DNA from: a virus | Reading direction: 5' to 3' (one strand) | Virus record (IMG/VR): IMGVR_UViG_3300029953_000012 | Coordinates: 36,201-100,200 of that record | Length of the DNA: 64,000 bases | Shown: positions 2,092 through 48,743 of the stretch, one piece after another | Position numbering within the stretch: the stretch's first letter is position 1 | Layout: every line of letters begins with the position of its first letter | Position numbers and translations under genes: made by a program | Notes under the pieces: generated by a model | What the model was told of the DNA's origin: nothing | Seen by the model: only the letters and a program-made list of their open reading frames with translations | Database searches by the model: none

Positions 2092-2100
2092 TAATTACGC
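2092..2100 (-). promoter_or_regulatory. Late-promoter motif variant GCGTAATTA driving RNA copy B
   Basis: One mismatch to the recurring GTGTAATTA. It lies 4 nt upstream of the first paired base of the RNA. Confidence 0.5.
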
Positions 2101-8474: not shown

Positions 8475-10535
8475 TTATATAAAAAAACCAACAGAATCAG
8501 TTGCTGTATTATATAGACTGAAAGCAAATTGCGGGTCAACGTAATTCCCGCTGCACGTTCTGCATCTTGGGTATTGAAAATAATCTAATCCTTTATATTG
8601 TCTTAAGCCGTTTATCCACACTTGAGAACTAAAACCCGACACCCCGCTAATATAAGAACCACTTCCAGAAAATTCAACAAAAGTTCTAATTAAACCTAAA
8701 TATTGAGGAATGAACTTGATTTCCAAAAAATCTCCTGAAGGGTCATTTATATCGCCTAAATCATTGCCAGAAACTGAAATATAAGATGAATTTGTGAAAA
8801 AGGTATATATTGGACCATTAAATTCAAATCCTGTTTCTGTCCATTGACCCGTCGGAACAGAACTTGGTACTCCAGAAGCTGTATAAAGTGTTGAAAATGC
8901 AGTATAAATCCATTCAGAACCATTATAAGTTATACTTCCAGCGTTATTAGAAGCTTCATATTCCAATGAACCACCAACTCCTGTTCCGTTTATATAGTAA
9001 GTTCCATTAAACGCTGCTGAACCACCAACGCCTCCGCTTACATTTAGAATATTTTGACTCTGGACTGAATAGTTCAATCCACTAGCCATTTTTTGCCCAT
9101 TTAAATATATATCTGAAGCAAAATTAGCAAGAGACATACCACTAACGCCCGTTATATTAACAAAATTACTACCTGTAGTACCAGTTTGGATATATCCGGT
9201 ATTATACGGCATGGTGTAAGTGGCTGGATAAATATCATACTGTAAAATATCATTTCCATCAAACCCTATAATTAAATTATTAAATGCCACACTAAAATCT
9301 ACTCCGCTTGTTTCTGCCAAGCCGTTGCCATAAATTTGGACCACTGAATTCGAACTGGGATATTGAAGATTAGTTGGTTGGAAACCGACATTAGTGTTAA
9401 ATGGAGAATAGGTATAAATTTCTACTATATCACCAGAAGTAAAACCTTGAGGGAAATAATAATCAAATAAAATTCCACTTGCTGCTTGAGTAGAATTATA
9501 TCCAAAAGAAATTCCGCTATTATATACCGTCCCACTTATTATTTCAGATAATGGAATTAATACTTTACCCACTTGTATTAAACCAGAAATACCAGAATCT
9601 ACATAAACATATCCTGTCCCACCACCAACCAATGGATAAGGAGTTTGGACTTGAGTTGTTGAAATTAACCCACTTTCATAAATTCCTGACCAAATTGAGC
9701 CAGTAATTTGGGTTTCTGTGTAATTAATAGGCGTGGAAGTGGTAACATAGCCAGTGACAAAAGCGCAATTAATACAACCACCCATGAAACTGTTATTTAA
9801 TAAACCGCTAAATAAGTAGGCTTCGTTTATTTTACCAGAATAACCAGTAAGACTTGTGGAATAAGATAATGCTCCTCCAATTGTCAAATCAACAACATTT
9901 ATAATTTGACTTCCTTCGTCATAGCCCTTAGAATAAAAAATATTGTCAGCGACACTAAATAATCCAAAATTTACAAATCTATTTCCTAAAACACTAAAAT
10001 AAGCGAAATCTCCAAACCCAATCTCTTTTGTAATCGTGTAAGCATAATCTGGTGTTTGTAAAAATAATCTATTAGATGGCGTTATGCCTAATATGGCACC
10101 AGAAACAGAACTTGTTTGAATTAATAATTGATTTTTGGTTCCGGTATAATTACATCCACTATAACCGAGATAAAGAATTATCGAAAAATCCTCGGTAAAA
10201 ATATCGGAAATTTGGTAAAAGTAATTTCCGGTTAGGTTTCCGCTTGTTTGAGAACCCACTCCATTGTATATCATTGGCAGGGCATCATTGTAAGGGAAAG
10301 ATGTGGAAGATGAAGATGAGTCATCTAAAACACTTCCACCAGCATCAGTAATAGGAGAATCTTCTGGGTCGTAAATTTGATTGCCGCTACTAAACACAAA
10401 ATAATGATAGCCCGTTGGATAAATTTGGTTCCAGACAATCAAACTATCTCCGCTAGAAAAGTCGTATAGACCCAACGCTGTGCCAGTGTTGATTCCTGTA
10501 GCCCCTAAACAATTTATAAATGGGAGAAATTTCAT
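8475..10535 (-). CDS. Virion protein with a LamG/concanavalin-like N-terminal domain
   Basis: 'LTIGG...YSGKINEAYLFSGLL' is LamG-like. Repeated 'IYxNG...GxDY' modules follow. Confidence 0.55.
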   Translation of the reverse strand: MKFLPFINCLGATGINTGTALGLYDFSSGDSLIVWNQIYPTGYHYFVFSSGNQIYDPEDSPITDAGGSVLDDSSSSSTSFPYNDALPMIYNGVGSQTSGNLTGNYFYQISDIFTEDFSIILYLGYSGCNYTGTKNQLLIQTSSVSGAILGITPSNRLFLQTPDYAYTITKEIGFGDFAYFSVLGNRFVNFGLFSVADNIFYSKGYDEGSQIINVVDLTIGGALSYSTSLTGYSGKINEAYLFSGLLNNSFMGGCINCAFVTGYVTTSTPINYTETQITGSIWSGIYESGLISTTQVQTPYPLVGGGTGYVYVDSGISGLIQVGKVLIPLSEIISGTVYNSGISFGYNSTQAASGILFDYYFPQGFTSGDIVEIYTYSPFNTNVGFQPTNLQYPSSNSVVQIYGNGLAETSGVDFSVAFNNLIIGFDGNDILQYDIYPATYTMPYNTGYIQTGTTGSNFVNITGVSGMSLANFASDIYLNGQKMASGLNYSVQSQNILNVSGGVGGSAAFNGTYYINGTGVGGSLEYEASNNAGSITYNGSEWIYTAFSTLYTASGVPSSVPTGQWTETGFEFNGPIYTFFTNSSYISVSGNDLGDINDPSGDFLEIKFIPQYLGLIRTFVEFSGSGSYISGVSGFSSQVWINGLRQYKGLDYFQYPRCRTCSGNYVDPQFAFSLYNTATDSVGFFI

Positions 10536-10562: not shown

Positions 10563-12209
10563 TTAATAACCAAAGAAAAATCCCGAATTTCTTGTTGGGA
10601 CGCTTATAGTGTTACTACCAACAGCCTGTAGTGATAATAGACCCGCGCTAATACCATTATCCTGACCAATCCAAGTTTGAGTATGTGAAACATCAAATAC
10701 TCCAGTGGTGATTTCAGCATTAACTAAAAATGCGGTCACATTACTTTCAGAACCGGATTGAACGTAAGTAGAAGATATTCCCTGTAAATATCCACTCAAA
10801 ATACTAAGTCCACTGGCGGTATTATAGGTATTTCCTTCAAATGTAAATTTTTGTTTAGGTCTGGTTGCTGCTTGTAAATTTTGCACAACGTAGTCGCCTT
10901 CTATTGTAGCTCCAGCTAATAATTCATAAATCCATCTAGAAGGTTCTGAATCCATCGCATATTTCAAACTATCAAGACCCATAGGTTCAAATCCGTCTTC
11001 CATATTTAAGGATAATTTTAGTTCTGCCAATTGACTATTCTCGGTGACTTCTACATCACAATTAGGAGAAAAGTTAACAGCATTATTGTGATTACCCGAA
11101 AAAACAGGTGAACTTATAATTAAACCTGTTAAAAAGGTTCTCCAATTATTCCCACCGTTGGTATTTTTGAAGATTTGGATTTGATTTAGGCGATAGTCGA
11201 GAGGGCCGAACGTTCGAAAATCACCTTCTATCTTCCAATTTTCTGTATTGTTTAGAAAGTTTTGTGTGCAAGTCACGCTGTAATCTAGGAAACCTGAAGG
11301 ATTAGCTCCAGACACATATCCGACTTTAATATCAATAGTTGCCGCGCCAGAATCTACACTTGCATTATAAGTGTTCTTAATCCAATTCGTAGTGTTATAT
11401 CCAAACTCATTCTGTATGTCCGCCAACATTCCATAATTCAGATTATTAGTAATAATAGAATTAAGATTATTGTTTATGGGAGAACCTTGAATTTTTAAAT
11501 TATAATCCACCACCCTAAATTCTTCAGTTATACCGTCAGAAATTTCTAATGAAGTTTTTTTGACGAAAGGAGAAATAACTCCAGTATTATAAAGATAGTT
11601 CTCTGTAACTGAATAAATTGCTTCTGCACGATTAATATTTTCAGAGACAGATAATAATACCCCGGAACCCGAAGGGACAAGATAAGGAATACACGAGCCA
11701 AAAGCATCCTGACCCGTAAAAGTTTGAACAAATGAGATAGCGTTTTGAAAAGCGGGATTGGAATTTCTTACTCCTTGAGCACTGATTGAATGCAAAACTG
11801 AAACTGAACCATCTTCTCGTTCGGTGAAACTATAGGCGTTGCTAGGTTGTAAAATTCCTGATGGCATCGCCCATGATTTTAGTTTTATATTATACTTAAC
11901 GAATGAGCCTTGGAAATAAGTATTTTGGTCTAAACTAATAGACTCTACTGTAATTCCAGACCAGTTATATAGAACATTATTTTGGTCGTCTTGGACTAAT
12001 AAATCTTGGAACTGATTAGAAAAAATTCCGGTTAGATAATTTATTACTTGTCCTGTGTTTGTAATTCCTGTTACAAAACCTTGTAAATCAATGGCGGTTT
12101 CGTAAGAATATAAATATCCAAATTGTATAGGAATTTGTGAAAAATTACATAGGGGTGTCGGTGGCCCTAGGGTCACGCCGCCATAACTGATATAAATTCC
12201 AGTAGTCAT
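10563..12209 (-). CDS. Tail protein (distal-tail/baseplate region), distant paralog of 13174-14943
   Basis: 548 aa. 'YSFTEREDGSVSVLHSISAQG' resembles 'FSFATNADGNRNFNHALSFG' of the neighbouring gene. Confidence 0.55.
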   Translation of the reverse strand: MTTGIYISYGGVTLGPPTPLCNFSQIPIQFGYLYSYETAIDLQGFVTGITNTGQVINYLTGIFSNQFQDLLVQDDQNNVLYNWSGITVESISLDQNTYFQGSFVKYNIKLKSWAMPSGILQPSNAYSFTEREDGSVSVLHSISAQGVRNSNPAFQNAISFVQTFTGQDAFGSCIPYLVPSGSGVLLSVSENINRAEAIYSVTENYLYNTGVISPFVKKTSLEISDGITEEFRVVDYNLKIQGSPINNNLNSIITNNLNYGMLADIQNEFGYNTTNWIKNTYNASVDSGAATIDIKVGYVSGANPSGFLDYSVTCTQNFLNNTENWKIEGDFRTFGPLDYRLNQIQIFKNTNGGNNWRTFLTGLIISSPVFSGNHNNAVNFSPNCDVEVTENSQLAELKLSLNMEDGFEPMGLDSLKYAMDSEPSRWIYELLAGATIEGDYVVQNLQAATRPKQKFTFEGNTYNTASGLSILSGYLQGISSTYVQSGSESNVTAFLVNAEITTGVFDVSHTQTWIGQDNGISAGLLSLQAVGSNTISVPTRNSGFFFGY

Positions 12210-12219
12210 TCCTAATCAT

Positions 12220-12228
12220 TAATTACAC
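12220..12228 (-). promoter_or_regulatory. Late-promoter motif GTGTAATTA
   Basis: Exact copy, 10 nt upstream of the ATG at 12209. Confidence 0.7.
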
Positions 12229-12254
12229 TATTTTGTTATTTTTTTCTATTTTAT

Positions 12255-12263
12255 GTGTATAAT
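12255..12263 (+). promoter_or_regulatory. Promoter GTGTATAAT driving RNA copy A and the GIY-YIG gene
   Basis: Identical to the variant at 23605-23613 and contains TATAAT. It is back-to-back with the minus-strand motif at 12220 and 4 nt before the RNA structure. Confidence 0.6.
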
Positions 12264-12267
12264 ATTA

Positions 12268-12365
12268 TGTACAGATAATATGAGATTAGTTAGACCATTT
12301 TGGGCTTTTCGTGAGCGTTTTGGAAACGCACTTCTTCTCATAGAACTGTACAGCACGAAAGGCTT
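12268..12365 (+). ncRNA. Putative pseudoknotted structured RNA leader, copy A (unknown family)
   Basis: P1 pairs TGTACAG/CTGTACA and TATGAGA/TCTCATA (12268-12285 with 12336-12352). P2 pairs 12302-12313 with 12354-12365 (12 bp including G-U). P3 is GCGTTT/AAACGC. The structure ends 2 nt before the endonuclease ATG. Confidence 0.65.
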
Positions 12366-12367
12366 TT

Positions 12368-13177
12368 ATGAATAAAATATCGGGGATATACCAAATAATA
12401 AATACAAAAAATGGCAAATTTTACGTTGGAAGCTTAAAGGATTGTTACGCAAGAAAAGGGAGGCATTTTAGGCACTTAAAAAATAGAACTCATTATAATG
12501 ATTATTTACAAAGGTCTTTTGATAAATACGGGGAATCTTCGTTTGTATTTTTAGTCTTGGAAGAAGATATACCTGAAAATAGTTTGCTTTCTATAGAGCA
12601 ATTATATTTAGACGAAATATCTAAAGATAAACAACATTCTATGAATGCTGGTTTTATAGCTGGTAGAGTAGAAATGACAGACGAAATTAAACAAAAAATA
12701 AGAATAACAAGGATAGGGAAGAAAATGAGTGAAGTTACAAAAAAGAAACTTTCTGAATTGGGGTTGGGGGAAAAGAATCACTTTTTTGGGAAACACCATA
12801 CACAAGAATCAAAAAAGAAAATTGGTAAAAAGGGAGAAAAACATCCATTTTTTGGTAAACGTCATTCTGAAGCAAGTAAAAGAAAAATATCCAAAGCTAA
12901 TAAGGGAAGAGTCCTGTCGGTCTTGACTAGAAAAAATATATCTCTTGCTAAAAAAGGAGTTCCTCGTTCAAAAGAGGCTATAAGGAAAACACAATTAGCG
13001 ATAATGATTCCAATAAAACAATTAGACAAAATAACTGGAAATATTATTAAAATTTGGCCGTCTATGAAGGATGCATCAATATCATTAGGAATTAGCAATG
13101 GTTATACTGGCAATATTAGTAGAGCATGTTCAAAAATAAAACCATCTGCCTACGGTTTCAAATGGGAATACGCTTAA
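12368..13177 (+). CDS. Free-standing GIY-YIG homing endonuclease with NUMOD3 repeats and a C-terminal NUMOD1-like domain
   Basis: SGIYQIINTKNGKFYVGS...R...H...N.YLQRSF.KYG...E motif. Repeats 'HFFGKHHTQESKKKI' and 'HPFFGKRHSEASKRKIS'. C-terminus 'WPSMKDAS...ISRAC...SAYGFKWEY'. It is antisense to the tail operon and its stop overlaps the neighbour's stop in TTAA (13174-13177). Confidence 0.92.
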   Translation: MNKISGIYQIINTKNGKFYVGSLKDCYARKGRHFRHLKNRTHYNDYLQRSFDKYGESSFVFLVLEEDIPENSLLSIEQLYLDEISKDKQHSMNAGFIAGRVEMTDEIKQKIRITRIGKKMSEVTKKKLSELGLGEKNHFFGKHHTQESKKKIGKKGEKHPFFGKRHSEASKRKISKANKGRVLSVLTRKNISLAKKGVPRSKEAIRKTQLAIMIPIKQLDKITGNIIKIWPSMKDASISLGISNGYTGNISRACSKIKPSAYGFKWEYA

Positions 13178-14946: not shown

Positions 14947-17900
14947 TTATTGTACCTTTGCTGGCAGCGGCTGATTACTAGTTACACTCTTAATTAAATC
15001 CAGTATCCCTGCCGCATTTGGAGTAACTGTAATATTAATTGGTGCCAAACCTTTAGACAATATCTCTGCCGCTGCCGTCATCAATTTTGCGGCTGTCATT
15101 AAATCAACTGCTCCCGTTTGCAAATTCTTAAATCCTTCCTGATTTTTCTGGAGTTCATCCTGTCTATTATCTTTCGTGGCAGTAAGATTTTGTTTATCCA
15201 AAATACTTTGTGGAGTTTGATTTCCAAATTGTTTCTGAGTAAGACTAGAAGCAGATTTTGATGCCAAGTCGTCGTTATATTTTAGATATGCCAATCCCGC
15301 ACTACTCTTAGTTAAATTGCGCTCAATCATCTGCCTCTGGGCTTCTCTGTCCTTCTGATACTTAGCCTCTAATTCTGGAGAATCTTTACCCAAGGCAGAA
15401 TAACTTTGGTTTCCTAATCCTCCTTTATAACCATATAAATAGCCGTTTCTATTAATGGTGTGTTCAGGTAAAATTCTGTTTTGGAAAATATTACTTTTTG
15501 TTTGGTTAAAATAGTTATTGGCGTCCTTATCGGTTAGGGCTTTTTCTATTCTGGCACTTTTTGAATGCATACCCGTCGCGTGTTCGTAATTTTGATTAAA
15601 TACTTCGTCGGTAGAAGTCCTATATTTGTCTCCATACTTTTTGATAAAATTCATTCTATCATCAAGTCTTTTGCCGCGAACTTCTTCTGTTTCAATTTGG
15701 GAACCGTATTGCATCCTTTCACTATTTTTATCAACCAAATATCTTCCCGCCATAGCTACATAGCTTAATGGACTCTTGCTAACCCCTAATAAGCCAAGAC
15801 CCATATTACCAATTCCTTCTGAATAGTGTCCTTGTTTAAAATCGTCATATGATTCCTTAGCAGCAAATCCGACTCCTACCGCTCCTAACGCAGTACCTCC
15901 CACTCTGGCAAATTTACCAAGTTTACCAGCGTTTTTCCATCCAGAAAGTGGGTTTAGAGAATCTGCTAATGAGCCAAATTTAAGTGAAAAAGCCTCCTTT
16001 ACTCCACTAGAGGTTGAAGAAACGTTTTTTGCTAATGAATCACGTAAAGAAACTCTTCTTGCTATTTCAGTGTCATAAGCTGTTCCACTGCCATAACGTA
16101 AAGGTTCTACTTTAAGTGATTTTCCAATTTTTTGAGATTCTTGACTATTTATGGTTGAAATTCTATCATTCAAAACTCCTTCACGAGCAGAATTTCCTAA
16201 TAATAAATTCCTAGCTCTTGTATATTCCCTTAAGGCTGTTTTTCCTCCCTTTAGAGAAGAGGTATTAACTTGACCAGCGAGTATATCATAATGTTCTGGA
16301 AGAAGACCTTTTTCTTGACCACCAAGATATGTTTGTTTAATATATTCCGGCATTCTTTCCTGACGAACCTTAAGAATCTTATCATAGGCATCCTGCATTC
16401 TTTTTTCATAAATAGCTTTATTTGACGCTAAAGTTTTAAGTTCTGCTTTGGCGTCTTCAATAGGACTAAAAGCGGTTCCTGTTGGTGCGGCAAGTTTAGA
16501 ATTCGAATTTATAGCGAAATTAGATTGTTTCTCTAATGTTGGAATACCAAAATTTCCTTTAATTTCTTGAGCTACTTTTGAGGCAGCTTTTTCTCCAGCA
16601 GCAATCGCAGACTCACCAGCTTGAGCCGTTTTAGGATTTATAATTGCTTCTTTAAGTCCTTTAAATTCTGTTACTAATTCCTTTGTGGCTTCTCCCCCTC
16701 CACGACCCTTGAACATTGCCCCAATAGATAAAATTAATGCACCCGCAGATAACATAGCCCCACCAGACGGAATGGCGTTCATTCCCAATGTTTGATACCA
16801 CTTAGCAGGGGGTGGTGTCGGAGGAGGTGTAGAATTATCTGTTCCGTTAGGAGTATATTTATTAGACTCGGCGGTTTTAGCGTCTTCTGACTTTTGAATT
16901 AAGTCCTGAAAAGTTTTAAAATTAGTACCTAGTGTTTCAAGACTATGAGAAAAAATATCCAAATCACCAGAAGCGCGTTTTACTGAGGTATCCAATGGAC
17001 TAATATCCAAACCACTTTGTCCTCCGGGTATAGGGCTATTAATATCCAAAGATGGCGTATTAACCCCCTTATACTTTCCAAAAGTTCTATCGAATGACCT
17101 TTCATCACTATTAGCAAATTGCTGTAAACCAGAACCAGCGTAAATATAATTATAAGCCGCTCTTGAACCAGCTTGAGCAGTGTCATACAAACCTCGTATT
17201 TGAGGATTATTATAATCTCTCTCGTCAGAAGGTATGAAATTAAGCAAATCTCTAGCTGCCTCACCTCGGCGTATGGTGCTGCGACTGTGAGTCATTGTAT
17301 ATTCATCTCGGCGAAGTTCTATACGAGCACTTCTAGCACCCCCACGAGCCAATTCATCAATACCTTTAATACCATCCGCTAGTTCGCTAAATCTGGCAGT
17401 CTTAATCTCAGCAAGTAAGTCATACAAAGCCTTAGTTTGTTCTTCGGCGTTCTTTTCTGCAATAGTCTTGGATTCAAGAAGGATATTACCGATATCTTCG
17501 GTTTTGCTTGAAAGTGCGCTGCTTAAAGAACTCTGTAAACCACTAAATTGAACGGGTTTAAACATCTCATTTCCCGTTTCTCCAACAGTAGCTCCAGCCC
17601 CCAAAAAGTTCTTAATAAAAGAATCTTTGTCCGTTACTCCACTGAGAATATTTTGTGGGTTTTTGGAAAACTCAGATAACCTCGAAGCAAGATATTCATT
17701 TTGTCTTTGTTTGTCTGGTAATAACGTAGCAAGACCGGAGGCGTCTGTTGAATTTGTCAAAGTTGGACGAATAAATTCTTGAGTAACCTTTTGTAGACTT
17801 TCGCTAATAGATTTTTTGCCAGCAATATTATTTAATGACGAATCTCTCTGAAATTGGTCATTTAAGTCTTGGATTTTCAACGCATAACGCTGTTGAATTG

Positions 17901-20900
17901 TTGACGAGTCAGAAGTAGTTAAAGATGATAATTCGTTTTGTTTTCCACCTTTGTAAGTAGCCAAGGAAGCGGTTCTATAAGTTGACTCCGCGCCCGCCAC
18001 ACCAGATGCTAAATTGAAATTGGATATTAATGCACCTTTGGAAATAACATTTTGAAGTTCTTGGTTGTACTTTTGGCGGATTGCCATTTCTTGAATGTTA
18101 ATTTCATTAAGAGCCTTGATATGTCTATCCCATTCGTCAACTCCAACACCTTTTGGAATTTTAAATTTATTAATCTCGTAAGAAAGTTGTTTAAATAATT
18201 GAGCGGCAGATTGGGTTCCTAAATCTGTATAGATAGGATTTTTAACCGCTTCACTCATATAAGAACTTATGTCATTATCATTCAAAGCCCCTTTCTTCAT
18301 TCTGTCCGAAAACCCTTGAGGCATTAAATCAGAGTCCATAACCCTTTGACCAATTGCTACTGCTGCTTGACTTAATGTATTCTGTTTCTCTAATATGTCT
18401 GTCGGGTTTGTTCCTCCAAAAAGACCAGTATCAGTAGCAAAAATTCCACCCGCCCTAGACTCAGCGAAACTATGACCGGCAATAGAATTATTAGCCACCA
18501 TTTGGGCTAAATTCATTCGTATTTCAGTTTCGCTCTTGTCGGCGGATTGTGTGTTGATAGCCTGACTAAGAATATTCCTCTTTTCTTCCGATGTTCCTGC
18601 TCCTTCTAGTTTTTGAACGATTTCTGCACCGCCACCTTTTCCAGAGGCATCAGGATTTATTCCCGCTAAAGCTATTAGAGATTTGGAATACTTACTCTGA
18701 AGGGATTGGTATTCATCAAGGGTGACGGCTGTATCATTTGCTGCGGCTTTTAATTTATCAAAAGAATCAAGAACGTCATTACCCGCGCTTGATAGATTTT
18801 CAGCCCTCGTACTTGCCAAATCATAGGCTCTTTCAAAAGTCCCGAATTTAGAAGCAGTAATAGATAATGCATTTGACAAAGAATTTGCCGCTACTCCAGC
18901 GGCGGTGATTACTCCCAATTTATTTGGGAAAGTTAATAATAATTGACTAGCAGTTACTATTCCATTAGAAAACTCTTCTAAACCTTTTGAAGCATCAACG
19001 GCACCAAAGTTTTTTGAAAAACTAGCCGCCTGTTCTATTGCCATGGGCGCGGCAATCATACCATATATAGAACCGCTACTTATTTTTCCAGATATTCCAG
19101 AAACTCTTTGCCTATAGTTTTGGTATTCAGCATTTTGAGCAGCTTGAACGGTCGGGTCTTTTGAAAACGAACTGTTTTTAGATTTTATAGCATCAGCTAA
19201 TTTATCTACGTCATTATATTCTTGACCATTATATTTAGTAGAACCTTCAACTTGAATATTCTTTTGAAGAATGGCAAATTGTTCGTTAGTTTTTCTAATT
19301 AACTCGATTTGTTTTTCGTATCCGAAAGAAAGGGAGTTTAATATTCCTCCCATCTTATTTCCTAAAACACCCTGTAAAGAACCTAAAATTAAAGAATCGG
19401 TAATACCGAAATTCGGAACAAATCCACCTCCCATGTTTTTAACATCTGTTTGTCCAATTGTAGCGTGTTGATTTATTGCATCCTGTGGGCTATTCTGATA
19501 AGATTTATCATATACCATGGCTCCTAATGGATTGTTGGTGGAAACGGCTTCTGGAGAAAATCCGATAGTAGCAGAAGAAGAATTTTCTCTTATTAATGCT
19601 TTTCTAACGGCTTCTCGTTCGTAAAACCACTCTAAAATTTCTTTTCCTGCCAGTCTCTTATCCCCCACAACAATTTGTGCATTTGGATTTTTTGACATTG
19701 CAAGATAACTTGATAGTTCTATATCAGAACCCAATTTAGTAGTATATCTATATGCTCCATAATTTTGATTTTTTCTTTCTGCTGAAGCTTGCAATCCCCT
19801 TTTGTTGGCATAAACTCCCCTCTTAACAATATTTTGATTTTGGGTGTCCCAAATATGATATGGTTCGCTTGGGTCTGGCATTGCTGCATTTGGAACAGAA
19901 AAACCACCAGCAGGAGTTACCGATATATTTGCACCAATTTCTTTTCCAACAGCACTTACTATATTAGCTGAGAAAGCTTGATTAACATTTCCTTCATATA
20001 CCCTTTGCATTACTCCACTAGAAAGTTCTGTTAGAGCTTGTCTTTTTAATTGTACTCCTTTAGCTCCACCAATAGAATTAGCCTCATTAAGAAGGGCGAT
20101 ATATTTTTCCATCAATCCATTATTCTGAGAAAGAACTTGTCCAATTCCCTGTTGAATCATTTTCTGTTTTTCGGCTGGTTCGTTATAACCTAATTCAGTT
20201 TTTCCAGAAGCGATAGCGAACGCCCCGAATCCTTTTGTAATTTTAGCAATCAAAGCCGCTGCTATTTGAATACCGGGACCAGAAATAATATCTCCAAGAC
20301 CTTTCGCAAAACCTTGACCAATACTTTTACTAATCTTATCCCCCGTGTCGGATTTTTCAGTAATTGAATCTAGACTGTCTGCGATTTTTTGTATTTGACT
20401 ATTAAAAGAGTCTAACTGACTTTTTGCTCCACTACCCATACTTACATTTCCTAAAGACGAAACTAGTTTTGTGAATGTTAAAACTGTGGTATTAAGTTTG
20501 GAAGCGATAGTATCATTAAGAGATACCATACGTTGTTCGATAAGACCAGTTGATTGACCGGCAGCAATTACAGCCTTGTCGTAAATAGAAAATCCATGTC
20601 CCAAATCATTTAAAGAAGCCTTTAAAATGTTAACTTGATAAACACCACCAACAGCTTCTGTGACGAATGACTTTTGAGCATAATTAAGGTTATTGTATTG
20701 AGACGCGAGATTCTTTAAAATACTAATTAAAGGAAGAACTTGTCCTGCCGCATTTTTTGTTTGCACTCCAACGGCTTCCAAATCGTTTATAACTTCTGGT
20801 CTTCCTAACCTTGTAAAAATAGACTTGAAAGCGTTACCAATAACGGCACCACCACGAGCCGTAGCGGTCTGGACAGCGGTAACTAATCCCAATAATTGAT

Positions 20901-21585
20901 TAAACTGAACTCCAGCTTCTGTTGCAGTAGAACCGACACGACCAATGGCTTTTGCCAAGTCTTGTGCGCTAACAGCAAATTTAGTATCAACGGCGGTTAA
21001 TCTGCTAACAATATCATTAGCAGAAAGTCCTTCTTTACTAAAGGCGTTAATAGCCGCCGTAATTGCATTAACGGAATCAGCAGCGTCTAATCCTGAAATT
21101 CTCATTAACTGCATGGCTGCGGTCATACGATTAGCTGTCTCGGTAGCACTAACACCGTGACGAGCAAATTCCAACGCCACCTTACTAGCTGTTTGGAATG
21201 TCTGTCCAGTTTGTGCGGCGGCTTTAAACATATTAGCCGAAAACTGGTTAAGCCCGCTAGAACCAAGTTTTAAGATTGTATTTATATTTGCTAGACTCTG
21301 TTCAACCTCAATGGTAGAAGATACCATTTTTTTGAAGGCGTTATATACCAAATAAATACTTCCTGCTGATGCTCCGAAGGCTAACACACGAGCATTAGCG
21401 GCTGACATGGACTTTTGGAAATCTGAAGATTGGCCAGTTATCTTGCCCAATGGTTGCGAAGCCGCGTTCATCCCAGCACTAATATTCTGGGATAAACTTG
21501 CTCCTATCTTTTTTGCACTTGCATTAGCTGTAGCTTCATCAAAATGAGGCACAACCAACACGCCCAATTGCATTAAATCTGCCAT
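14947..21585 (-). CDS. Tail tape measure protein (TP901-type core)
   Basis: 2212 aa, Ala/Gly-rich and helical. 'VDTKFAVSAQDLAKAIGRVGSTA...GNAFKSIFTRL' is the TP901-family TMP core. Confidence 0.93.
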   Translation of the reverse strand: MADLMQLGVLVVPHFDEATANASAKKIGASLSQNISAGMNAASQPLGKITGQSSDFQKSMSAANARVLAFGASAGSIYLVYNAFKKMVSSTIEVEQSLANINTILKLGSSGLNQFSANMFKAAAQTGQTFQTASKVALEFARHGVSATETANRMTAAMQLMRISGLDAADSVNAITAAINAFSKEGLSANDIVSRLTAVDTKFAVSAQDLAKAIGRVGSTATEAGVQFNQLLGLVTAVQTATARGGAVIGNAFKSIFTRLGRPEVINDLEAVGVQTKNAAGQVLPLISILKNLASQYNNLNYAQKSFVTEAVGGVYQVNILKASLNDLGHGFSIYDKAVIAAGQSTGLIEQRMVSLNDTIASKLNTTVLTFTKLVSSLGNVSMGSGAKSQLDSFNSQIQKIADSLDSITEKSDTGDKISKSIGQGFAKGLGDIISGPGIQIAAALIAKITKGFGAFAIASGKTELGYNEPAEKQKMIQQGIGQVLSQNNGLMEKYIALLNEANSIGGAKGVQLKRQALTELSSGVMQRVYEGNVNQAFSANIVSAVGKEIGANISVTPAGGFSVPNAAMPDPSEPYHIWDTQNQNIVKRGVYANKRGLQASAERKNQNYGAYRYTTKLGSDIELSSYLAMSKNPNAQIVVGDKRLAGKEILEWFYEREAVRKALIRENSSSATIGFSPEAVSTNNPLGAMVYDKSYQNSPQDAINQHATIGQTDVKNMGGGFVPNFGITDSLILGSLQGVLGNKMGGILNSLSFGYEKQIELIRKTNEQFAILQKNIQVEGSTKYNGQEYNDVDKLADAIKSKNSSFSKDPTVQAAQNAEYQNYRQRVSGISGKISSGSIYGMIAAPMAIEQAASFSKNFGAVDASKGLEEFSNGIVTASQLLLTFPNKLGVITAAGVAANSLSNALSITASKFGTFERAYDLASTRAENLSSAGNDVLDSFDKLKAAANDTAVTLDEYQSLQSKYSKSLIALAGINPDASGKGGGAEIVQKLEGAGTSEEKRNILSQAINTQSADKSETEIRMNLAQMVANNSIAGHSFAESRAGGIFATDTGLFGGTNPTDILEKQNTLSQAAVAIGQRVMDSDLMPQGFSDRMKKGALNDNDISSYMSEAVKNPIYTDLGTQSAAQLFKQLSYEINKFKIPKGVGVDEWDRHIKALNEINIQEMAIRQKYNQELQNVISKGALISNFNLASGVAGAESTYRTASLATYKGGKQNELSSLTTSDSSTIQQRYALKIQDLNDQFQRDSSLNNIAGKKSISESLQKVTQEFIRPTLTNSTDASGLATLLPDKQRQNEYLASRLSEFSKNPQNILSGVTDKDSFIKNFLGAGATVGETGNEMFKPVQFSGLQSSLSSALSSKTEDIGNILLESKTIAEKNAEEQTKALYDLLAEIKTARFSELADGIKGIDELARGGARSARIELRRDEYTMTHSRSTIRRGEAARDLLNFIPSDERDYNNPQIRGLYDTAQAGSRAAYNYIYAGSGLQQFANSDERSFDRTFGKYKGVNTPSLDINSPIPGGQSGLDISPLDTSVKRASGDLDIFSHSLETLGTNFKTFQDLIQKSEDAKTAESNKYTPNGTDNSTPPPTPPPAKWYQTLGMNAIPSGGAMLSAGALILSIGAMFKGRGGGEATKELVTEFKGLKEAIINPKTAQAGESAIAAGEKAASKVAQEIKGNFGIPTLEKQSNFAINSNSKLAAPTGTAFSPIEDAKAELKTLASNKAIYEKRMQDAYDKILKVRQERMPEYIKQTYLGGQEKGLLPEHYDILAGQVNTSSLKGGKTALREYTRARNLLLGNSAREGVLNDRISTINSQESQKIGKSLKVEPLRYGSGTAYDTEIARRVSLRDSLAKNVSSTSSGVKEAFSLKFGSLADSLNPLSGWKNAGKLGKFARVGGTALGAVGVGFAAKESYDDFKQGHYSEGIGNMGLGLLGVSKSPLSYVAMAGRYLVDKNSERMQYGSQIETEEVRGKRLDDRMNFIKKYGDKYRTSTDEVFNQNYEHATGMHSKSARIEKALTDKDANNYFNQTKSNIFQNRILPEHTINRNGYLYGYKGGLGNQSYSALGKDSPELEAKYQKDREAQRQMIERNLTKSSAGLAYLKYNDDLASKSASSLTQKQFGNQTPQSILDKQNLTATKDNRQDELQKNQEGFKNLQTGAVDLMTAAKLMTAAAEILSKGLAPINITVTPNAAGILDLIKSVTSNQPLPAKVQ

Positions 21586-23309: not shown

Positions 23310-23582
23310 TTATAGTATAATTGGGGTTGATGTGATAGTCTTTCGATAGATAATTCTTTTAGACGCTTCCTCTACGCGTTGCGCGTTGATAACGAAATCA
23401 AAATAACTTAAAAATTGAAGTATTTCTCTGAGGGTGTCGTTGGAAGAATCTAGAACTTTCTTGCGAATAGCAGCGTGTTTTTCATCGTCTAATTTTAAGT
23501 CCTCTACTAAACCAAGGTAGTATTTAAATAAAGCCTTAATTTCCTTTTCCATCTGTAATTTAATAATACAATCTTCAACCAT
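23310..23582 (-). CDS. Hypothetical protein
   Basis: 90-aa ORF with an AAGGA SD and an upstream GTGTATAAT motif (23605-23613). Confidence 0.6.
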   Translation of the reverse strand: MVEDCIIKLQMEKEIKALFKYYLGLVEDLKLDDEKHAAIRKKVLDSSNDTLREILQFLSYFDFVINAQRVEEASKRIIYRKTITSTPIIL

Positions 23583-23621
23583 AATTATTCCTTTATCCTA
23601 TATTATTATACACATTAAAAC

Positions 23622-23646
23622 AAAAAAACCCCGCCGAAGCGGGGTT
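23622..23646 (-). terminator. Rho-independent terminator after the major tail gene
   Basis: AACCCCGC-TTCG-GCGGGGTT followed by a T run, with a cUUCGg tetraloop. Confidence 0.9.
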
Positions 23647-23665
23647 GTAAATTTCACTATTACGA

Positions 23666-27584: not shown

Positions 27585-28757
27585 TTATGTGTTAGACGTT
27601 AAAAGACCATTGGTAAAAGTCATTGTTCCAGTTGCTCCACCCGTTTTAATATATGATATAGTAGTCGATTTACCAGAAACTCCCCCAATAGAATAACTGT
27701 TAGCATTTAATGAGGTAACGTTCCAACTACCCGAAATTATACCATTAAACCAATCAATTAAAACCAAAGAACCAGCTTTTAATTGTCTATTTTGCCAATC
27801 AATTGATTGATTACCAGATGAATCATAAGTTAAACGACTTTTCCAATCCAATGTCGTTTGTGTGCCAGTCTGTAGTCCAAAAGAAGATGATGTAGTAATA
27901 CCGCTGTATGCATTAATTGAAGAATCAATATTTAGTGGAAAATTAAAATATTGAGTTGCATTAAAGACTTTGGAACCACCAATGGATTCAAATCCATTTA
28001 AGTGAACAACAGTCGAGTCTTGAGCAACAATATTTCCATTTATATAAATTCCGCTAGTAAAATTTCCATCGCCGCTCACATCCAATGTATATTGAGGACT
28101 GTCATTAAAAAAACCAATATTATCATTATTACTTCCATCAATAGTTAATATATTAGTTAATGTTTGATAATCATAAAGTTGAAATTGGTTAGAAGAACCC
28201 CTAGCAACGAATGTATAGCCATTATTTCCGTTTGCAGATATGGTATAATTAGTGTCTCCTCCAGCGACGTTGTTGTTATACATAGCCCAACAACTATTAC
28301 CAGCTTGATACATATTCATACTGCCTCCAGTATATGAAGACGCTAAAAATAAAAATCCGCTATTTATATTGAAACGATTAAAATAACCATTTGCATGATT
28401 ATCAGCAATTTGTGTCGAATTAATATAATATCCCGTTGTACTATTAACCGAACCACTTACAGTTAAATTACCAGAAAGTGTTTGATTTCCTGTATTTAAA
28501 AGAAAACCGCTTGTTTCTATTATGGGTATTTGACTTAAAACGTAGGAGGTAGCTTGGTTAATTGCACTATCTAAAGTATTTTGACTAACAAAAACACCTG
28601 ATTCTTGATAATCATTTGGGTTAGTATTAAGCGGGTAAAAAGACCCAGTTAGAACACCCGTATTACCAGATAAATAACTCTGAACCAAAGAAATAATAAA
28701 ACCAGAAAGTTCAGATTGGTTTAGTTGTTTTAGCCTAATTGTCGAATCGAATGCCAT
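27585..28757 (-). CDS. Fibre-like virion protein with an N-terminal anchor shared with 41684-43936
   Basis: N-terminus MAFDSTIRLKQLNQSELSGF. Fibre motifs 'NIGF...PQYTLDVSG' and 'VVHLNGFESIGGSKVF'. C-terminus 'MTFTNGLLT'. Confidence 0.65.
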   Translation of the reverse strand: MAFDSTIRLKQLNQSELSGFIISLVQSYLSGNTGVLTGSFYPLNTNPNDYQESGVFVSQNTLDSAINQATSYVLSQIPIIETSGFLLNTGNQTLSGNLTVSGSVNSTTGYYINSTQIADNHANGYFNRFNINSGFLFLASSYTGGSMNMYQAGNSCWAMYNNNVAGGDTNYTISANGNNGYTFVARGSSNQFQLYDYQTLTNILTIDGSNNDNIGFFNDSPQYTLDVSGDGNFTSGIYINGNIVAQDSTVVHLNGFESIGGSKVFNATQYFNFPLNIDSSINAYSGITTSSSFGLQTGTQTTLDWKSRLTYDSSGNQSIDWQNRQLKAGSLVLIDWFNGIISGSWNVTSLNANSYSIGGVSGKSTTISYIKTGGATGTMTFTNGLLTSNT

Positions 28758-28765
28758 AATAAATG

Positions 28766-29172: not shown

Positions 29173-30891
29173 TTATAGGGGAACTTGGGTATTTGTATAT
29201 GATTTTTCAAATTTTATTAAGCCGCAGTCGTAGATGCGTTGCCATCCATGGCTGCTCATATTCTCCCATTCAGTTTTACTAGCGTCGTAATTTAACAACT
29301 TATTAATTAAATACTTATGCCTAAATCCAAACTTATGATGGAGTTTCTTTTCCGGGGGGTGGAAATAAAAATAACTTGGTTCATTTTCTTTGGTTAATTG
29401 AAAGCCTAATTGGTAATAAAGATTCCCGACAGACCATCTTTTATCAGCAAAGGAGAAAACGTGATGTGGATGGTAATTTTTCTCAAAAAAAGATAATAAT
29501 TTAGATGCCCCGCCGCAGACATTAAAATGATTTATCCCCGAAAAGCGGGATAGTTCATAGTCGTTATCTCTAACCGAGAATGTCATTACGTTAACCAGCC
29601 GGTTTTTATAGAAAAGTCCCAAGAATATTCCCGAACCATAATCCTGTCCTTGGATATGGTATTTATCTAGAAATTTGTTTTTGGTATTAAAATCAATTAG
29701 TCGGACTTCACATTTACGCGCAAAAATACGTCTTTTGACTAGCCCCAAGTAGTGTTTGAGGCGACTGAAGACGATTTTAGGTTTGTCTAAGAGTTCATTC
29801 TCGAAGATTTGTATAACTCGTTTATCAACAGATTGTTTTAAAAAATTTAATTGGCCATTTGGTTCTTTAGAATTATATAGTTCTACGACCTTAATAATTA
29901 TATTTTTACTCGGTATATTAAATATTTTATCTTCTTGTGTAAATTCCACTTCACATTGATTAAGTAATTGATTTATTGAAAGTATTTTATTTTTTAATGG
30001 CTCATTAAATAATGAGGGATATTTATTTTTTAATATTTCAATAATTTCTAATACTTCTGGTTTTTCCCATTTGCGAGCCAATTTTAGTACTTCCATGGAA
30101 TTAATTTTATGAATGATTCTAGCGGCGTTGATGCCATTTATATTAAAGGTATATAGGTTCTTGTTTTTATGTTCTGGATGAATACTAGCTTTAATTTTGT
30201 CATTAAGAAAAGCTTCTACCGTTGACTTTATCCAAATGAGGAGTTTCTCCGTTCCTAAAATAGATATTCTAATACAATTTTCGGCTTGAGGACCGTTTAC
30301 AAAAATAGAACCATCTCCAGTAATAATCCCCGAAATATAAGCAAGATAATTGTCTAGGTTGTTTGATTCTTTTGGCGGTTCGAGATTATGACTCTTTTTG
30401 CCGGAATGGATATTCCAATTTTTATATAAGTCTTCTAACCATTTATCGGCTGAAGAAATTTCCAATCTAGATTTTTTATCTAAATAATGGTAGGTTTTTC
30501 CGCTTCTTTTGTCAAGAAATATTGCTTGTTTTTCAGTAGAGGAAATCATATAATTGGATTTGGCTAAACGATTAAATTCTTGCAGCAAAAATATGTCTTT
30601 CGTGTTAATGCCGAGGCATACTCTTCCAGCCCTGTTTCCTTTCTTGGGTGATAAATGCCCATCGCTTGCTATAATTCCACTAATACTACTATTAACCGTA
30701 TTTGGTACTTCAAAGAATAATTCGTCTTTTTGGTATTTCTTACAAACGCCCAAAAATGTTTGCCTTGCTTTTACGGCGTTATAATTTCTACCGGGGAGCA
30801 GTTTTACTATCTCCAGCAACGGAATAGTCTCATACTTATCAATAATAATCTTATCTTCTTCTGGTTTCCAAATGTTTCTCATACCTATCAT
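29173..30891 (-). CDS. Double-motif LAGLIDADG homing endonuclease fused to a Hef-like/GNAT-fold C-terminal region
   Basis: N-terminal Myb-like 'WKPEEDKII...LPGRNYNAVK'. LAGLIDADG motifs 'ISGIIASDGH' and 'YISGIITGDGSI'. C-terminus 'IFARKCEV...FLDKYHIQG...ELSRF...GGASKLL...SFADKRWS.GNLY..LGF...IYDCG'. Confidence 0.8.
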   Translation of the reverse strand: MIGMRNIWKPEEDKIIIDKYETIPLLEIVKLLPGRNYNAVKARQTFLGVCKKYQKDELFFEVPNTVNSSISGIIASDGHLSPKKGNRAGRVCLGINTKDIFLLQEFNRLAKSNYMISSTEKQAIFLDKRSGKTYHYLDKKSRLEISSADKWLEDLYKNWNIHSGKKSHNLEPPKESNNLDNYLAYISGIITGDGSIFVNGPQAENCIRISILGTEKLLIWIKSTVEAFLNDKIKASIHPEHKNKNLYTFNINGINAARIIHKINSMEVLKLARKWEKPEVLEIIEILKNKYPSLFNEPLKNKILSINQLLNQCEVEFTQEDKIFNIPSKNIIIKVVELYNSKEPNGQLNFLKQSVDKRVIQIFENELLDKPKIVFSRLKHYLGLVKRRIFARKCEVRLIDFNTKNKFLDKYHIQGQDYGSGIFLGLFYKNRLVNVMTFSVRDNDYELSRFSGINHFNVCGGASKLLSFFEKNYHPHHVFSFADKRWSVGNLYYQLGFQLTKENEPSYFYFHPPEKKLHHKFGFRHKYLINKLLNYDASKTEWENMSSHGWQRIYDCGLIKFEKSYTNTQVPL

Positions 30892-41683: not shown

Positions 41684-43936
41684 TTATTGATATGGATTAG
41701 CATATGTACCGTAAAATGCCGAATATCCAGTCTCATCAGGGAATCTTATTATCGAATAGACATTGGCTGTTCCAGAATTTGGAAAGGAATACGCGTTAGA
41801 TGGCCATTTTATTTGTTTTAAAACTCCCGTTACCGTAACAGAACTTAAATTAAAAAGCTGTGATGAAGTTCCATTATTCTGTGGTACGTTTATATTTCGC
41901 ACCTTTATTATTAATGATTGTCCAGTGGCGAAATTGTCGCCCGAAATAGTTATGGAAACTGGGTTAACTCCAGCCGCTGCACCAGATGACCCACTTGATA
42001 TCTGTAGTGAGTACATGTCGTAATTCGCGGGGTCCAATAAAACTCCACTACTAGCAGAACCAATACCGTTCCCATATACCAAACTAAAGAAATTTTCAGG
42101 TCTCAAAGTCGTTGGCACACCCGCCGCTCCTTGAGGGCCAGTAGCTCCACCCGACGCTAAAATTTGCCATGGTACACTCGGAGGCGCGATACCACTTATA
42201 TTAGATACGCCGGTATTAATATAACTTGAACCTGACTGTACAACTATTGAATTAGGAATATACACATTCGGTAGTCCAGAATAAGTTCCCGAAAAATGAT
42301 TGGATATCGAACCCGCTGCTCCAGTTGCCCCCGTTGGCCCTACAGGACCAGTTGCGCCGATGGTACCGGATTGACAAAGCATCTGCCAAGGAACATTAGG
42401 GGGGTAAATTCCGCTAATAGTAGTTCCTGTATTGATAAAGGATGACCCCGAAGAGAATACTATATTATCATTGTAGTATGTGGTACCAGAAGCAAAGTTT
42501 CCTTGAAAATTATTACTTAATGTGCCAACTGCGCCAGAAGCTCCTGATGGTCCTCCCGCTGGTAATGGAATCCAAGGCTGAGTTATTCCATTCGCTAATT
42601 GGAACTGAATATAAATATTATTACCGACGCCAGAATATGTATATCCAACGACATCCGCACCATTTTCTCCTGTTGCTCCAACTGGTCCTATATTACCAGT
42701 TGGACCTATATTTCCACTTGGTCCAATTGGTCCTTGAATTCCCGCAGGACCAGCTTGCGAAGAGAAAATAGCATTACCAACCACAACAGCAAACCCAGTA
42801 GATGTTGATGAACTCAAAATCATTGAATCTGTCGTCGTATCTTGACCTAATGTATAAAGTACAAACCCATATTGATACTGACTCTGTGCCGCGAAGCTAG
42901 TGGTAAAAGAAATCTGTGTCCTATAAGGATTATTGACTAAGTTATAGTAAACCACGCTATTAGTCGTTTCTACAAATAAACTTGGGGTAGTATTAGAGTT
43001 ATAAAATCCAGTTGCGGTACCGCTCGGAAAAAAGACTGGCCTCCAGTAACCTGTGTTATAAGCGTCTTCGTAATAGTTAATTTTATTTCCGGCTTGGAAC
43101 GGAAGGGACTGTCCAGAGAAAAACCCAGACATAATAGTAATATCTCCAGATGTCAATGTGTGAGTATTTAATCCACTAGAATTTAAGGTATAACTCATCC
43201 CGCGCATCAGAGTAATATCTGGGAAACTATTACCACTAAAATAAGGATTGATAATTACTTGACTTGGAAAACCAGAGTCGGGAGGATTAGCGCCAGAAGT
43301 ATAAGATGTACCCGATTGTTGGAAATTAAGAGTAACACCTCCGGGCATACCCTGTGGTCCAGCTATTAAAGAAATCGGCGCACCCAACCCCTGATAGTTA
43401 CTAAATTGAGGAAGAATATAATTACCACTTTGGAAAAACCCAGTAACTGAAGTACCAGTAGCTCCACTTAGTCCTTGAAAATTAAAACCAGTTGATGTAT
43501 TATTAGATAGGTAAAAAGAAAGTATATGACTGGTAGTGTTATAAGTAATTCCAGTAACACTTATGCCTGTCGCACCTGTCGGCCCCTGCACCCCAGACAA
43601 ACCCTGTAATCCACTTGGCCCCTGAATAAAAACATAGTCACCATTAAAAGAAAAAACATATCCACCAACGTCTATATATGCCCCGCTTCCAGAAGTATAA
43701 GCATTAAAACTCGTATTGCCAAAATTTATTCCAGAACCAGAAGCCAAACTTAGTTCATTAGCGAATATTTGAGCATAAGGATATAACGATGACCCAATAT
43801 TGTAAACCCCTGAACCAGAAGGAATTAGATTACCAGAGATATTTTGAAATGGAAATAGTGCAAGAATCCCAGACACGAAACCAGATAATTCTGATTGGTT
43901 TAATTGCTTTAGCCTAATTGACGAGTCATATGCCAT
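41684..43936 (-). CDS. Collagen-like fibre protein
   Basis: Several Gly-X-Y runs, two tandem CBM5/12-like modules, N-terminus MAYDSSIRLKQLNQSELSGF. Upstream motif GTGTAATAC at 43948-43956. Confidence 0.8.
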   Translation of the reverse strand: MAYDSSIRLKQLNQSELSGFVSGILALFPFQNISGNLIPSGSGVYNIGSSLYPYAQIFANELSLASGSGINFGNTSFNAYTSGSGAYIDVGGYVFSFNGDYVFIQGPSGLQGLSGVQGPTGATGISVTGITYNTTSHILSFYLSNNTSTGFNFQGLSGATGTSVTGFFQSGNYILPQFSNYQGLGAPISLIAGPQGMPGGVTLNFQQSGTSYTSGANPPDSGFPSQVIINPYFSGNSFPDITLMRGMSYTLNSSGLNTHTLTSGDITIMSGFFSGQSLPFQAGNKINYYEDAYNTGYWRPVFFPSGTATGFYNSNTTPSLFVETTNSVVYYNLVNNPYRTQISFTTSFAAQSQYQYGFVLYTLGQDTTTDSMILSSSTSTGFAVVVGNAIFSSQAGPAGIQGPIGPSGNIGPTGNIGPVGATGENGADVVGYTYSGVGNNIYIQFQLANGITQPWIPLPAGGPSGASGAVGTLSNNFQGNFASGTTYYNDNIVFSSGSSFINTGTTISGIYPPNVPWQMLCQSGTIGATGPVGPTGATGAAGSISNHFSGTYSGLPNVYIPNSIVVQSGSSYINTGVSNISGIAPPSVPWQILASGGATGPQGAAGVPTTLRPENFFSLVYGNGIGSASSGVLLDPANYDMYSLQISSGSSGAAAGVNPVSITISGDNFATGQSLIIKVRNINVPQNNGTSSQLFNLSSVTVTGVLKQIKWPSNAYSFPNSGTANVYSIIRFPDETGYSAFYGTYANPYQ

Positions 43937-43955
43937 AATCCCTTAAGGTATTACA

Positions 43956-48056: not shown

Positions 48057-48743
48057 TTACTCTAGTCCATGTTCTTGAATATATTGACGAGCCTTTTCTT
48101 GAATAGATTTTGTTAATTCTTTAATATGTCTATATCCCGGAGAACGCCCTTTTTCGTTACTTACAAAATTTAAACTTTTAGCTACCTCTTCTTCTTCTTT
48201 ATTGTCTATATAAAGACCCTTATATACCTTATATTCTATTGGTTTTAGAATCTTTTTCATTATAATATGAAGTTTTTCCTCATTACTAATTGAATAATGA
48301 GAGGAATCTTTTATTTCGTGGACTTCATTGGAATGATTTTCTATTGAAAGGGGGAGCTTTACGAAGGTCGCCGGTTGTTTATTTTTTTTCCAATGAGCGT
48401 ATAGAGGACAGGCTTCGCATTGTTCCTTGTAAATTTTACACCCATCCTCCCCAATGGACGCATCACACCTCAAACAGGGTCTGGCATAATTAGTATAGTT
48501 GTTCCTTACTAGATTTTTAATTTGATTTGTAATTATACGATTAACCCAAGGCTTTAGTGGTTTTGAATCATCGTACTGGTCCCATTTATTCCAAAGATGT
48601 ATTAGAACAATCTGGCTAACATCTTGGAAGTCCATACTGGCTAATGAAGTAAGCGTCCATCGGTGTTTGTGCTTTATTATTTCATCCTGAATTTCGGGAA
48701 TTAATTTCTCGAAATTATTAATATCGATTGGAGTCTTTTTCAA
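48057..48743 (-). CDS. Phage-encoded sigma70-family (ECF-like) sigma factor with a Cys-rich insertion
   Basis: Region 2 'DFQDVSQIVLIHLWNKWDQYD..KPLKPWVNRIITNQIKNLVR'. Insert CLRC-x7-C-x6-CEAC. Region 4-like 'LKPIEYKVY...EEVAKSL'. Confidence 0.8.
   Translation of the reverse strand: MKKTPIDINNFEKLIPEIQDEIIKHKHRWTLTSLASMDFQDVSQIVLIHLWNKWDQYDDSKPLKPWVNRIITNQIKNLVRNNYTNYARPCLRCDASIGEDGCKIYKEQCEACPLYAHWKKNKQPATFVKLPLSIENHSNEVHEIKDSSHYSISNEEKLHIIMKKILKPIEYKVYKGLYIDNKEEEEVAKSLNFVSNEKGRSPGYRHIKELTKSIQEKARQYIQEHGLE

Follow-up and report, generated by a model that had tools for sequence, protein, structure and literature searches.

A leader RNA of about 100 bases, which precedes a homing endonuclease gene in a phage genome, is supported by sequence comparison as a real, selected and uncatalogued structure with crossing helices. 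The DNA that we analysed, called the window here, is a 64,000-nucleotide stretch of a 100.2-kb IMG/VR virus record, in which the leader with its promoter-like motif and start codon (12255-12370) is flanked by two tail-module genes of the minus strand; the gene for the tape measure protein lies at 14947-21585. Three distinct versions of the leader RNA were obtained: copy A before the endonuclease gene, copy B elsewhere in the window, and one version in a second phage. The leader's most likely role, to which we give about even chances, is that of a cis-acting translation throttle that hides the ribosome site, within a portable module of promoter, leader and start codon.

In copy A, the leader comprises the entire span between the promoter motif and the endonuclease ATG. 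Reading of the sequence at 12255-12370 bore out the initial annotation, which had described helices P1, P2 and P3, the crossing of P1 and P2, a promoter 4 nt upstream, and a structure that fills the 5' leader up to the start codon with P2 covering the purine-rich AAAGG stretch. The helices occupy 12268-12365 of the plus strand, and the features are as follows.

12255-12263, plus strand: promoter-like motif GTGTATAAT, a variant of GTGTAATTA, followed by 4 nt and then P1
12268-12285, plus strand: P1 5' arm, made up of P1a (12268-12274), a 4-nt internal loop and P1b (12279-12285)
12286-12301, plus strand: L1 linker, 16 nt, unconserved apart from its U-rich 3' end
12302-12313, plus strand: P2 5' arm, pyrimidine-rich
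12314-12335, plus strand: invariant A, P3 hairpin and J3/1 (ACUUCU)
12315-12329, plus strand: P3 hairpin, 6 bp (12315-12320 with 12324-12329) and a 3-nt loop
12336-12352, plus strand: P1 3' arm, made up of P1b (12336-12342), GAA and P1a (12346-12352)
12353-12367, plus strand: invariant single G linker, P2 3' arm (12354-12365, which has the AAAGG) and UU
12368-13177, plus strand: cargo gene for a GIY-YIG and NUMOD3 homing endonuclease of 269 aa, from Pfam, PHROGs and the translation

P1a (12268-12274 with 12346-12352) and P1b (12279-12285 with 12336-12342) each consist of 7 bp, and P2 (12302-12313 with 12354-12365) of 12 bp including 3 G.U pairs. P2 spans AAAGG and stops 2 nt short of the ATG at 12368. 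The strand order is P1(5')-P2(5')-P3-P1(3')-G-P2(3'), which makes P1 and P2 cross. The promoter motif lies 4 nt 5' of P1 and 38 nt 5' of the P2 5' arm. As a single sequence, copy A folds in an ordinary way (MFE z = -1.7), and its two nested alternatives are near-equal in energy, at -18.2 kcal/mol for P1+P3 versus -17.0 kcal/mol for P2+P3; the two are almost isoenergetic in copy B also. In the two-layer folding heuristic that we used for pseudoknot significance, the MFE layer consumed the loop bases. Since the single-sequence fold is unremarkable, the significance of the structure must come from comparison between copies.

A covariance model built from copy A and the second-phage version (contig L063) matches the window at 1989-2089 on the minus strand with 47.9 bits (E ~4e-8). 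The second copy that had been annotated about 10 kb away is therefore real, including the C-G to U-A change that it was said to carry in P3 relative to copy A. Its features are the following.

2092-2100, minus strand: promoter-like motif GCGTAATTA, 4 nt ahead of P1
1989-2089, minus strand: copy B, from the covariance-model match, the helices and the sequence
2087-2081 with 2012-2006, minus strand: P1a
2079-2073 with 2021-2015, minus strand: P1b
2056-2047 with 2004-1995, minus strand: P2
2045-2040 with 2036-2031, minus strand: P3
1992-1990, minus strand: AUG, which opens just 8 codons

All four helices of copy B differ in sequence from those of copy A, yet all of them pair. An exact-pattern scan of viral contigs recovered L062 and L063, both with the P2/P3 core seen in copy A, and a pattern scan placed the phage of these two contigs in three metagenome contigs; identical leader copies are found across five contigs and several samples. 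The similarity seen when copy A is aligned with L063 extends from the promoter motif to ATGA. Identity amounts to 51 of 52 positions in the core and 25 of 53 in P1 with L1, and both halves of P1 pair in each of the two versions though the bases differ. The window phage and the second phage have no common ORF of at least 80 aa except a pair of GIY-YIG genes (43% match over 91 aa), and the unit they share comprises the promoter motif, the leader and the ATG, ~115 nt in all. Because the two phages otherwise share no protein beyond this distant GIY-YIG match, the module is either mobile or independently retained. A further AUG lies near the 5' end of the leader, where its UG forms the first two bases of P1a (window 12267-12278, plus strand; window 2088-1969, minus strand; L063:7861), and it is placed where other genes of the window phage start. 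It reads for 3 codons in copy A and for 40 codons in copy B, where the frame crosses the whole leader and is in frame with the terminal AUG; in L063 it is UUG, and it is thus not conserved as an ORF.

The genes that follow the leader differ between versions. In copy A, the AUG is where the GIY-YIG domain truly begins, and the endonuclease gene is oriented opposite to all its neighbours. The L063 leader precedes a 44-aa HTH-like ORF whose PHROG matches are to a D5-like regulator and, weakly, to an HNH endonuclease; this ORF has no similarity to the window endonuclease, and a search for longer relatives found none. The second phage's GIY-YIG gene (G001/G002, L063:6143-7180) lies ~780 bp upstream of the leader module and is without such a leader. 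Copy B is located in a 131-nt gap between two convergent genes, and its 8-codon frame abuts the stop of the plus-strand gene 1191-1988, so that there is no room for cargo. That gene has no Pfam or PHROG match and has 1934 homologues at E <= 1e-5, with 50-69% identity and similar length, and its product is a widespread uncharacterised phage protein. The module is thus present in unrelated phages with differing cargo. The initial annotation had proposed a new cis-acting RNA class that travels with free-standing homing endonucleases. What stands of this proposal is an RNA that is real, selected and uncatalogued; the association with endonucleases was not supported in the form proposed, as only one of the three versions directly precedes such a gene, tabulation of downstream genes gave an endonuclease (copy A), the HTH-like ORF (L063) and none (copy B), and a covariance-model search (model R2) of 47 viral records with related GIY-YIG genes gave no match. 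The leader's link to homing endonucleases is therefore loose.

Several side observations concern the genes around these modules. Near-identical relatives of the window endonuclease (P0001, P0002) occur on other contigs; one endonuclease variant has V for G at residue 6 of the GIY motif and one is frameshifted after about residue 118, which fits ongoing population decay or assembly errors. Another relative, P0003, is 43% identical, and the 194-kb contig encoding it also seems to hold a homologue (P0145) of window gene 1191-1988. A 572-aa protein encoded at window 29173-30891 (minus strand) has a LAGLIDADG_3 domain and strong C-terminal matches to homing/HNH endonuclease PHROGs. This second mobile-nuclease-like gene is on the same strand as its neighbours and is without the leader RNA. 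A 62-nt direct repeat, 85% identical between window 28699-28760 and 43878-43939, spans the 5' ends of genes 27585-28757 and 41684-43936 (tail-fibre-like) and corresponds to a shared N-terminal module. L063 encodes rIIA- and rIIB-like genes (L063:678-2762 and L063:4351-5436).

Comparison of the three distinct versions provides the main evidence for the structure. Standard pairs fill 96.8% of the pair cells, and 12 of the 32 pairs have changed on both sides (four in P1a, four in P1b, three in P2 and one in P3), counts that rest on three sequences with P1b of copy B imperfectly aligned. The observed pairing values were reached by 0 of 500 shuffles, and slid controls, in which partners were shifted by 1-3 columns, were 39-57% paired with 1-4 doubly changed pairs. 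The covariation check envisaged in the initial annotation thus showed compensatory change beyond the shuffled background. The alignment was built on a structure without P2, so the compatible changes seen in P2, three double and two single, cannot be put down to fitting; RNAalifold independently predicted P2 together with P3. The geometry is constant across versions, with a 1-nt A between P2 and P3, a 1-nt G between P1 and P2, and a P2 3' arm that ends 2-3 nt before the AUG, while J3/1 measures 6-9 nt and P1 13-14 bp plus the internal loop. About ten unpaired bases are invariant, namely the A, ACUUC, the G and U-R-G in the P3 loop. Judged by these comparisons, the four helices are maintained by selection. 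Chance complementarity or a decaying, functionless relic could account for the ordinary single-sequence MFE, the tiny family of three distinct versions, the one orphan copy and the endonuclease variants with a frameshift or G6V. It would leave unexplained the doubly changed pairs that no shuffle matched, the core kept in two unrelated phages and the identical copies in five contigs from several samples, and we consider it scarcely credible.

The same pairs indicate at which level the element acts. As DNA, it could be an operator for the endonuclease or the HTH protein, a homing site or a cruciform. I-TevI, which binds an operator overlapping its own late promoter, is a precedent for such autorepression (PMC2988022), P3 is a DNA palindrome, and the core sequence is strongly conserved. 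The inverted repeats, however, lie 60-80 nt apart and covary instead of being fixed, and the cargo proteins are unrelated. Moreover, the three versions contain 7 G.U cells, which would be A.C mismatches on the opposite strand, and 0 A.C cells. The structure thus belongs to the ATG-bearing strand, as for RNA and not for duplex DNA, and a DNA-level element is very unlikely.

The initial annotation had matched the leader to no known family, and this still holds: Rfam 15 (4227 models) gave 0 matches in the window at gathering scores, and at E up to 10 over copies A and B the best scores were noise, at 14-19 bits against thresholds of 43-211 and from unrelated families. Further members of the family were sought in sequence collections by exact patterns. 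Five patterns run against viral contigs found true members only in L062/L063, the matches L064-L069 being due to chance; the pattern scan of metagenome contigs found only the L062-type phage, and L077 and L078 in the species genome collection are local chance matches. A loose pattern returned 50 loci, of which the best had a model score of 20.6 bits (E 0.8) with P2 not formed. Among INPHARED cultured phages, neither the two phage regions nor the leader had relatives at the DNA or protein level. In the window, a model match at 30649-30787 (12.5 bits, E 1.6) was dismissed as weak and inside an ORF. A tRNA-like reading of P3, which would have a 7-nt anticodon-like loop if two U-A pairs opened, was discarded because ARAGORN finds no tRNA and there is no cloverleaf. 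A terminator reading was likewise rejected, as the U-run after P2 is missing in copy B and the terminator scan was negative there.

The variable cargo raises the question of whether the RNA functions independently of the downstream ORF, as a self-cleaving ribozyme, a regulatory or antisense RNA, or the RNA partner of a protein. Copy B, the orphan, has retained every helix, and transcription from it would enter the conserved convergent gene in antisense orientation; different copies have different cargo, the core sequence is very highly conserved, and the order P1-P2-P3-P1'-P2' is that of HDV-like ribozymes. In these ribozymes the strands follow as P1(5')-P2(5')-P3 hairpin-P1(3')-P2(3') with P2 abutting P3, and HDV-like and theta ribozymes occur in phages and in mobile-element leaders. 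Their P1, however, has 6-7 bp, whereas that of the leader has 13-14 bp and is interrupted by an internal loop; the P3 of the leader, 6 bp with a 3-nt loop, differs as well. The leader also lacks P1.1, P4 and the J4/2 catalytic cytidine, and in all three versions P1(3') and P2(3') are joined by a single G. The leader matches none of the HDV-type models of Rfam and, with E relaxed to 10, still none of its ribozyme or sRNA models; nothing found favours self-cleavage of the leader RNA. HEARO/IscB omega RNA is a structured RNA near a nuclease ORF too, in that case of the HNH type; it is much larger, acts as a guide RNA and is in Rfam, whereas the leader has no match and precedes GIY-YIG and NUMOD3 cargo. 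An autonomous RNA would further have to be reconciled with the position of the structure, which in all three versions ends 2-3 nt before an AUG followed by A, with the copy A AUG as the true start of the GIY-YIG domain, and with the missing conserved terminator (copy B has no U-run after P2). We regard an autonomous role as rather unlikely.

The promoter motif places the leader in the context of gene expression in these phages. GTGTAATTA is present in 8 exact copies in the window, versus 1.05 expected (9-mers at 9718, 10553, 12220, 21615, 28766, 34434, 41656 and 50573), 7 of which are on the minus strand and immediately ahead of genes. Motifs of this type lie 4-30 nt before many start codons in the window phage and in the unrelated G001, where close variants are found 3-11 nt before many ATGs (L079-L083). 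This suggests a common promoter type and many leaderless or near-leaderless mRNAs in both phages. Against the very short or absent leaders of other genes, the structured leader of 104 nt stands out as an exception that needs a regulatory reason. Two promoter-like motifs stand back to back in window 12220-12263, 26 nt apart: the one at 12220-12228 faces the tail gene 10563-12209, which has no relatives among the viral contigs, and the other faces the endonuclease cassette. Downstream of the minus-strand motif at 23605 comes a short leader of the ordinary kind, not another copy of the RNA. In this stretch (window 23590-23660, minus strand), an intrinsic-terminator-like hairpin with a U-run directly precedes the motif variant GTGTATAAT; next come a short leader with AAGGA and the 90-aa gene 23310-23582, which makes this a clean terminator-promoter junction within the minus-strand block. 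The window also encodes a sigma-70 region 2 protein (48057-48743, minus strand; Pfam 6.1e-9), a candidate reader of the GTGTAATTA motif.

As a throttle, the leader would work as follows. Transcription would start a few bases past the promoter motif, so that the RNA would begin inside or at the foot of P1. P1 would shut the 5' end around a loop that carries the pyrimidine-rich P2 5' arm and P3, and the newly made P2 3' arm would pair with this P1-closed loop. Pairing of P2 would bury about -14 to -3 relative to the AUG, including the Shine-Dalgarno-like purines, and would thereby hold ribosome loading of the cargo gene low; such low output would suit a nuclease or a DNA-binding protein that is harmful in excess. 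We infer that P1 and P2 form simultaneously, as a pseudoknot, rather than in turn, and that the effect of the leader is reduced translation. The throttle reading is favoured by helices retained through compensatory change far above the shuffled and slid controls, by a P2 3' arm that carries a purine stretch and always ends just ahead of the AUG, and by a long structured leader that stands out among leaders of 4-30 nt.

It also has precedent in the homing endonuclease genes of T-even phages, where RNA structures sequester the ribosome site of I-TevI, I-TevII, I-TevIII, segB and Aeh1 mobE (PMC2988022). As in those leaders, a cis RNA beside a promoter of late type base-pairs across the ribosome-binding region of the endonuclease gene, which limits translation there (PMC2988022), and a helix that covers this region right before the start codon is found in all versions of our leader. 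The orientation of the copy A endonuclease gene opposite to its neighbours recalls T4 segD. The T-even leaders are simple gene-specific hairpins, whereas four helices, two of them crossing, are present here. Their late promoter lies inside the hairpin, so that late transcripts are without the 5' arm; in our leader no late promoter lies within the structure, the promoter motif being 5' of all arms. Unlike in T-even phages, one sequence family here spans unrelated phages, and its members include an orphan and a leader whose downstream ORF is not an endonuclease.

Other observations sit less well with the throttle. Copy B has every helix but no cargo, and a pure throttle would thus have no target there. 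The near-identical P2/P3 core and the roughly ten invariant unpaired bases exceed what masking needs. SD-like motifs precede ORFs at 27% versus a 16% background in G000 and at 13% versus 12% in G001, and AGGA-type sites are present before some structural genes; given this weak Shine-Dalgarno use in both phages, AAAGG may not be the true ribosome site. In addition, with a single G and a 6-9-nt J3/1 to span P1, the full pseudoknot is predicted to be strained, and P1 and P2 may therefore alternate instead of coexisting.

Such alternation is the basis of a signal-responsive switch, in which the ribosome site would be free in the P1+P3 state and masked in the P2+P3 state. The choice between them would fall to a ligand, to temperature, to the timing of folding during transcription or to a protein, which could be the cargo protein acting in autoregulation. 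In copies A and B the two nested states differ little in energy, covariation retains both, and the full pseudoknot looks sterically strained, while the invariant unpaired bases and near-invariant core resemble a binding pocket. The pairing of a U-rich arm with a purine stretch recalls fourU thermometers. Like preQ1-II/III and SAM-II/V riboswitches, the leader has conserved unpaired core bases and a pseudoknot 3' strand that holds ribosome-binding purines just before the start codon; unlike them, it has much longer helices, non-metabolic cargo and no sequence or covariance-model match. The T4 gene 32 leader, a 5' mRNA pseudoknot that serves as an autogenous translational operator, forms a small H-type knot that lies well upstream of the ribosome site and provides a nucleation site for gp32, whereas in our leader the ribosome site is covered by the knot. 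No nucleotide is common to P1 and P2, in contrast to the overlapping helices of usual riboswitch platforms, and no Rfam riboswitch family matches. The cargo genes are not only non-metabolic but mutually unrelated, so that no common protein effector is apparent. On this evidence, we consider a switch rather unlikely. A broader proposal, that the promoter-leader-AUG unit is a new mobile class of structured RNA, either catalytic or a switch that senses a ligand or protein, which moves between unrelated phages and persists free of cargo, is possible, though we hold it doubtful.

Phages that harbour homing endonucleases must be able to tolerate the expression of these selfish genes, and to our knowledge the only restraints on the genes known so far are the gene-specific hairpins of T-even phages. 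Here, a crossing four-helix RNA is conserved in sequence and structure between phages without other common genes. Since it is carried with its own promoter and start codon, the leader is a candidate portable expression-control module. This object of ~100 nt bears on how a cassette is kept harmless, on possible sensing, and on the retention of an orphan copy.
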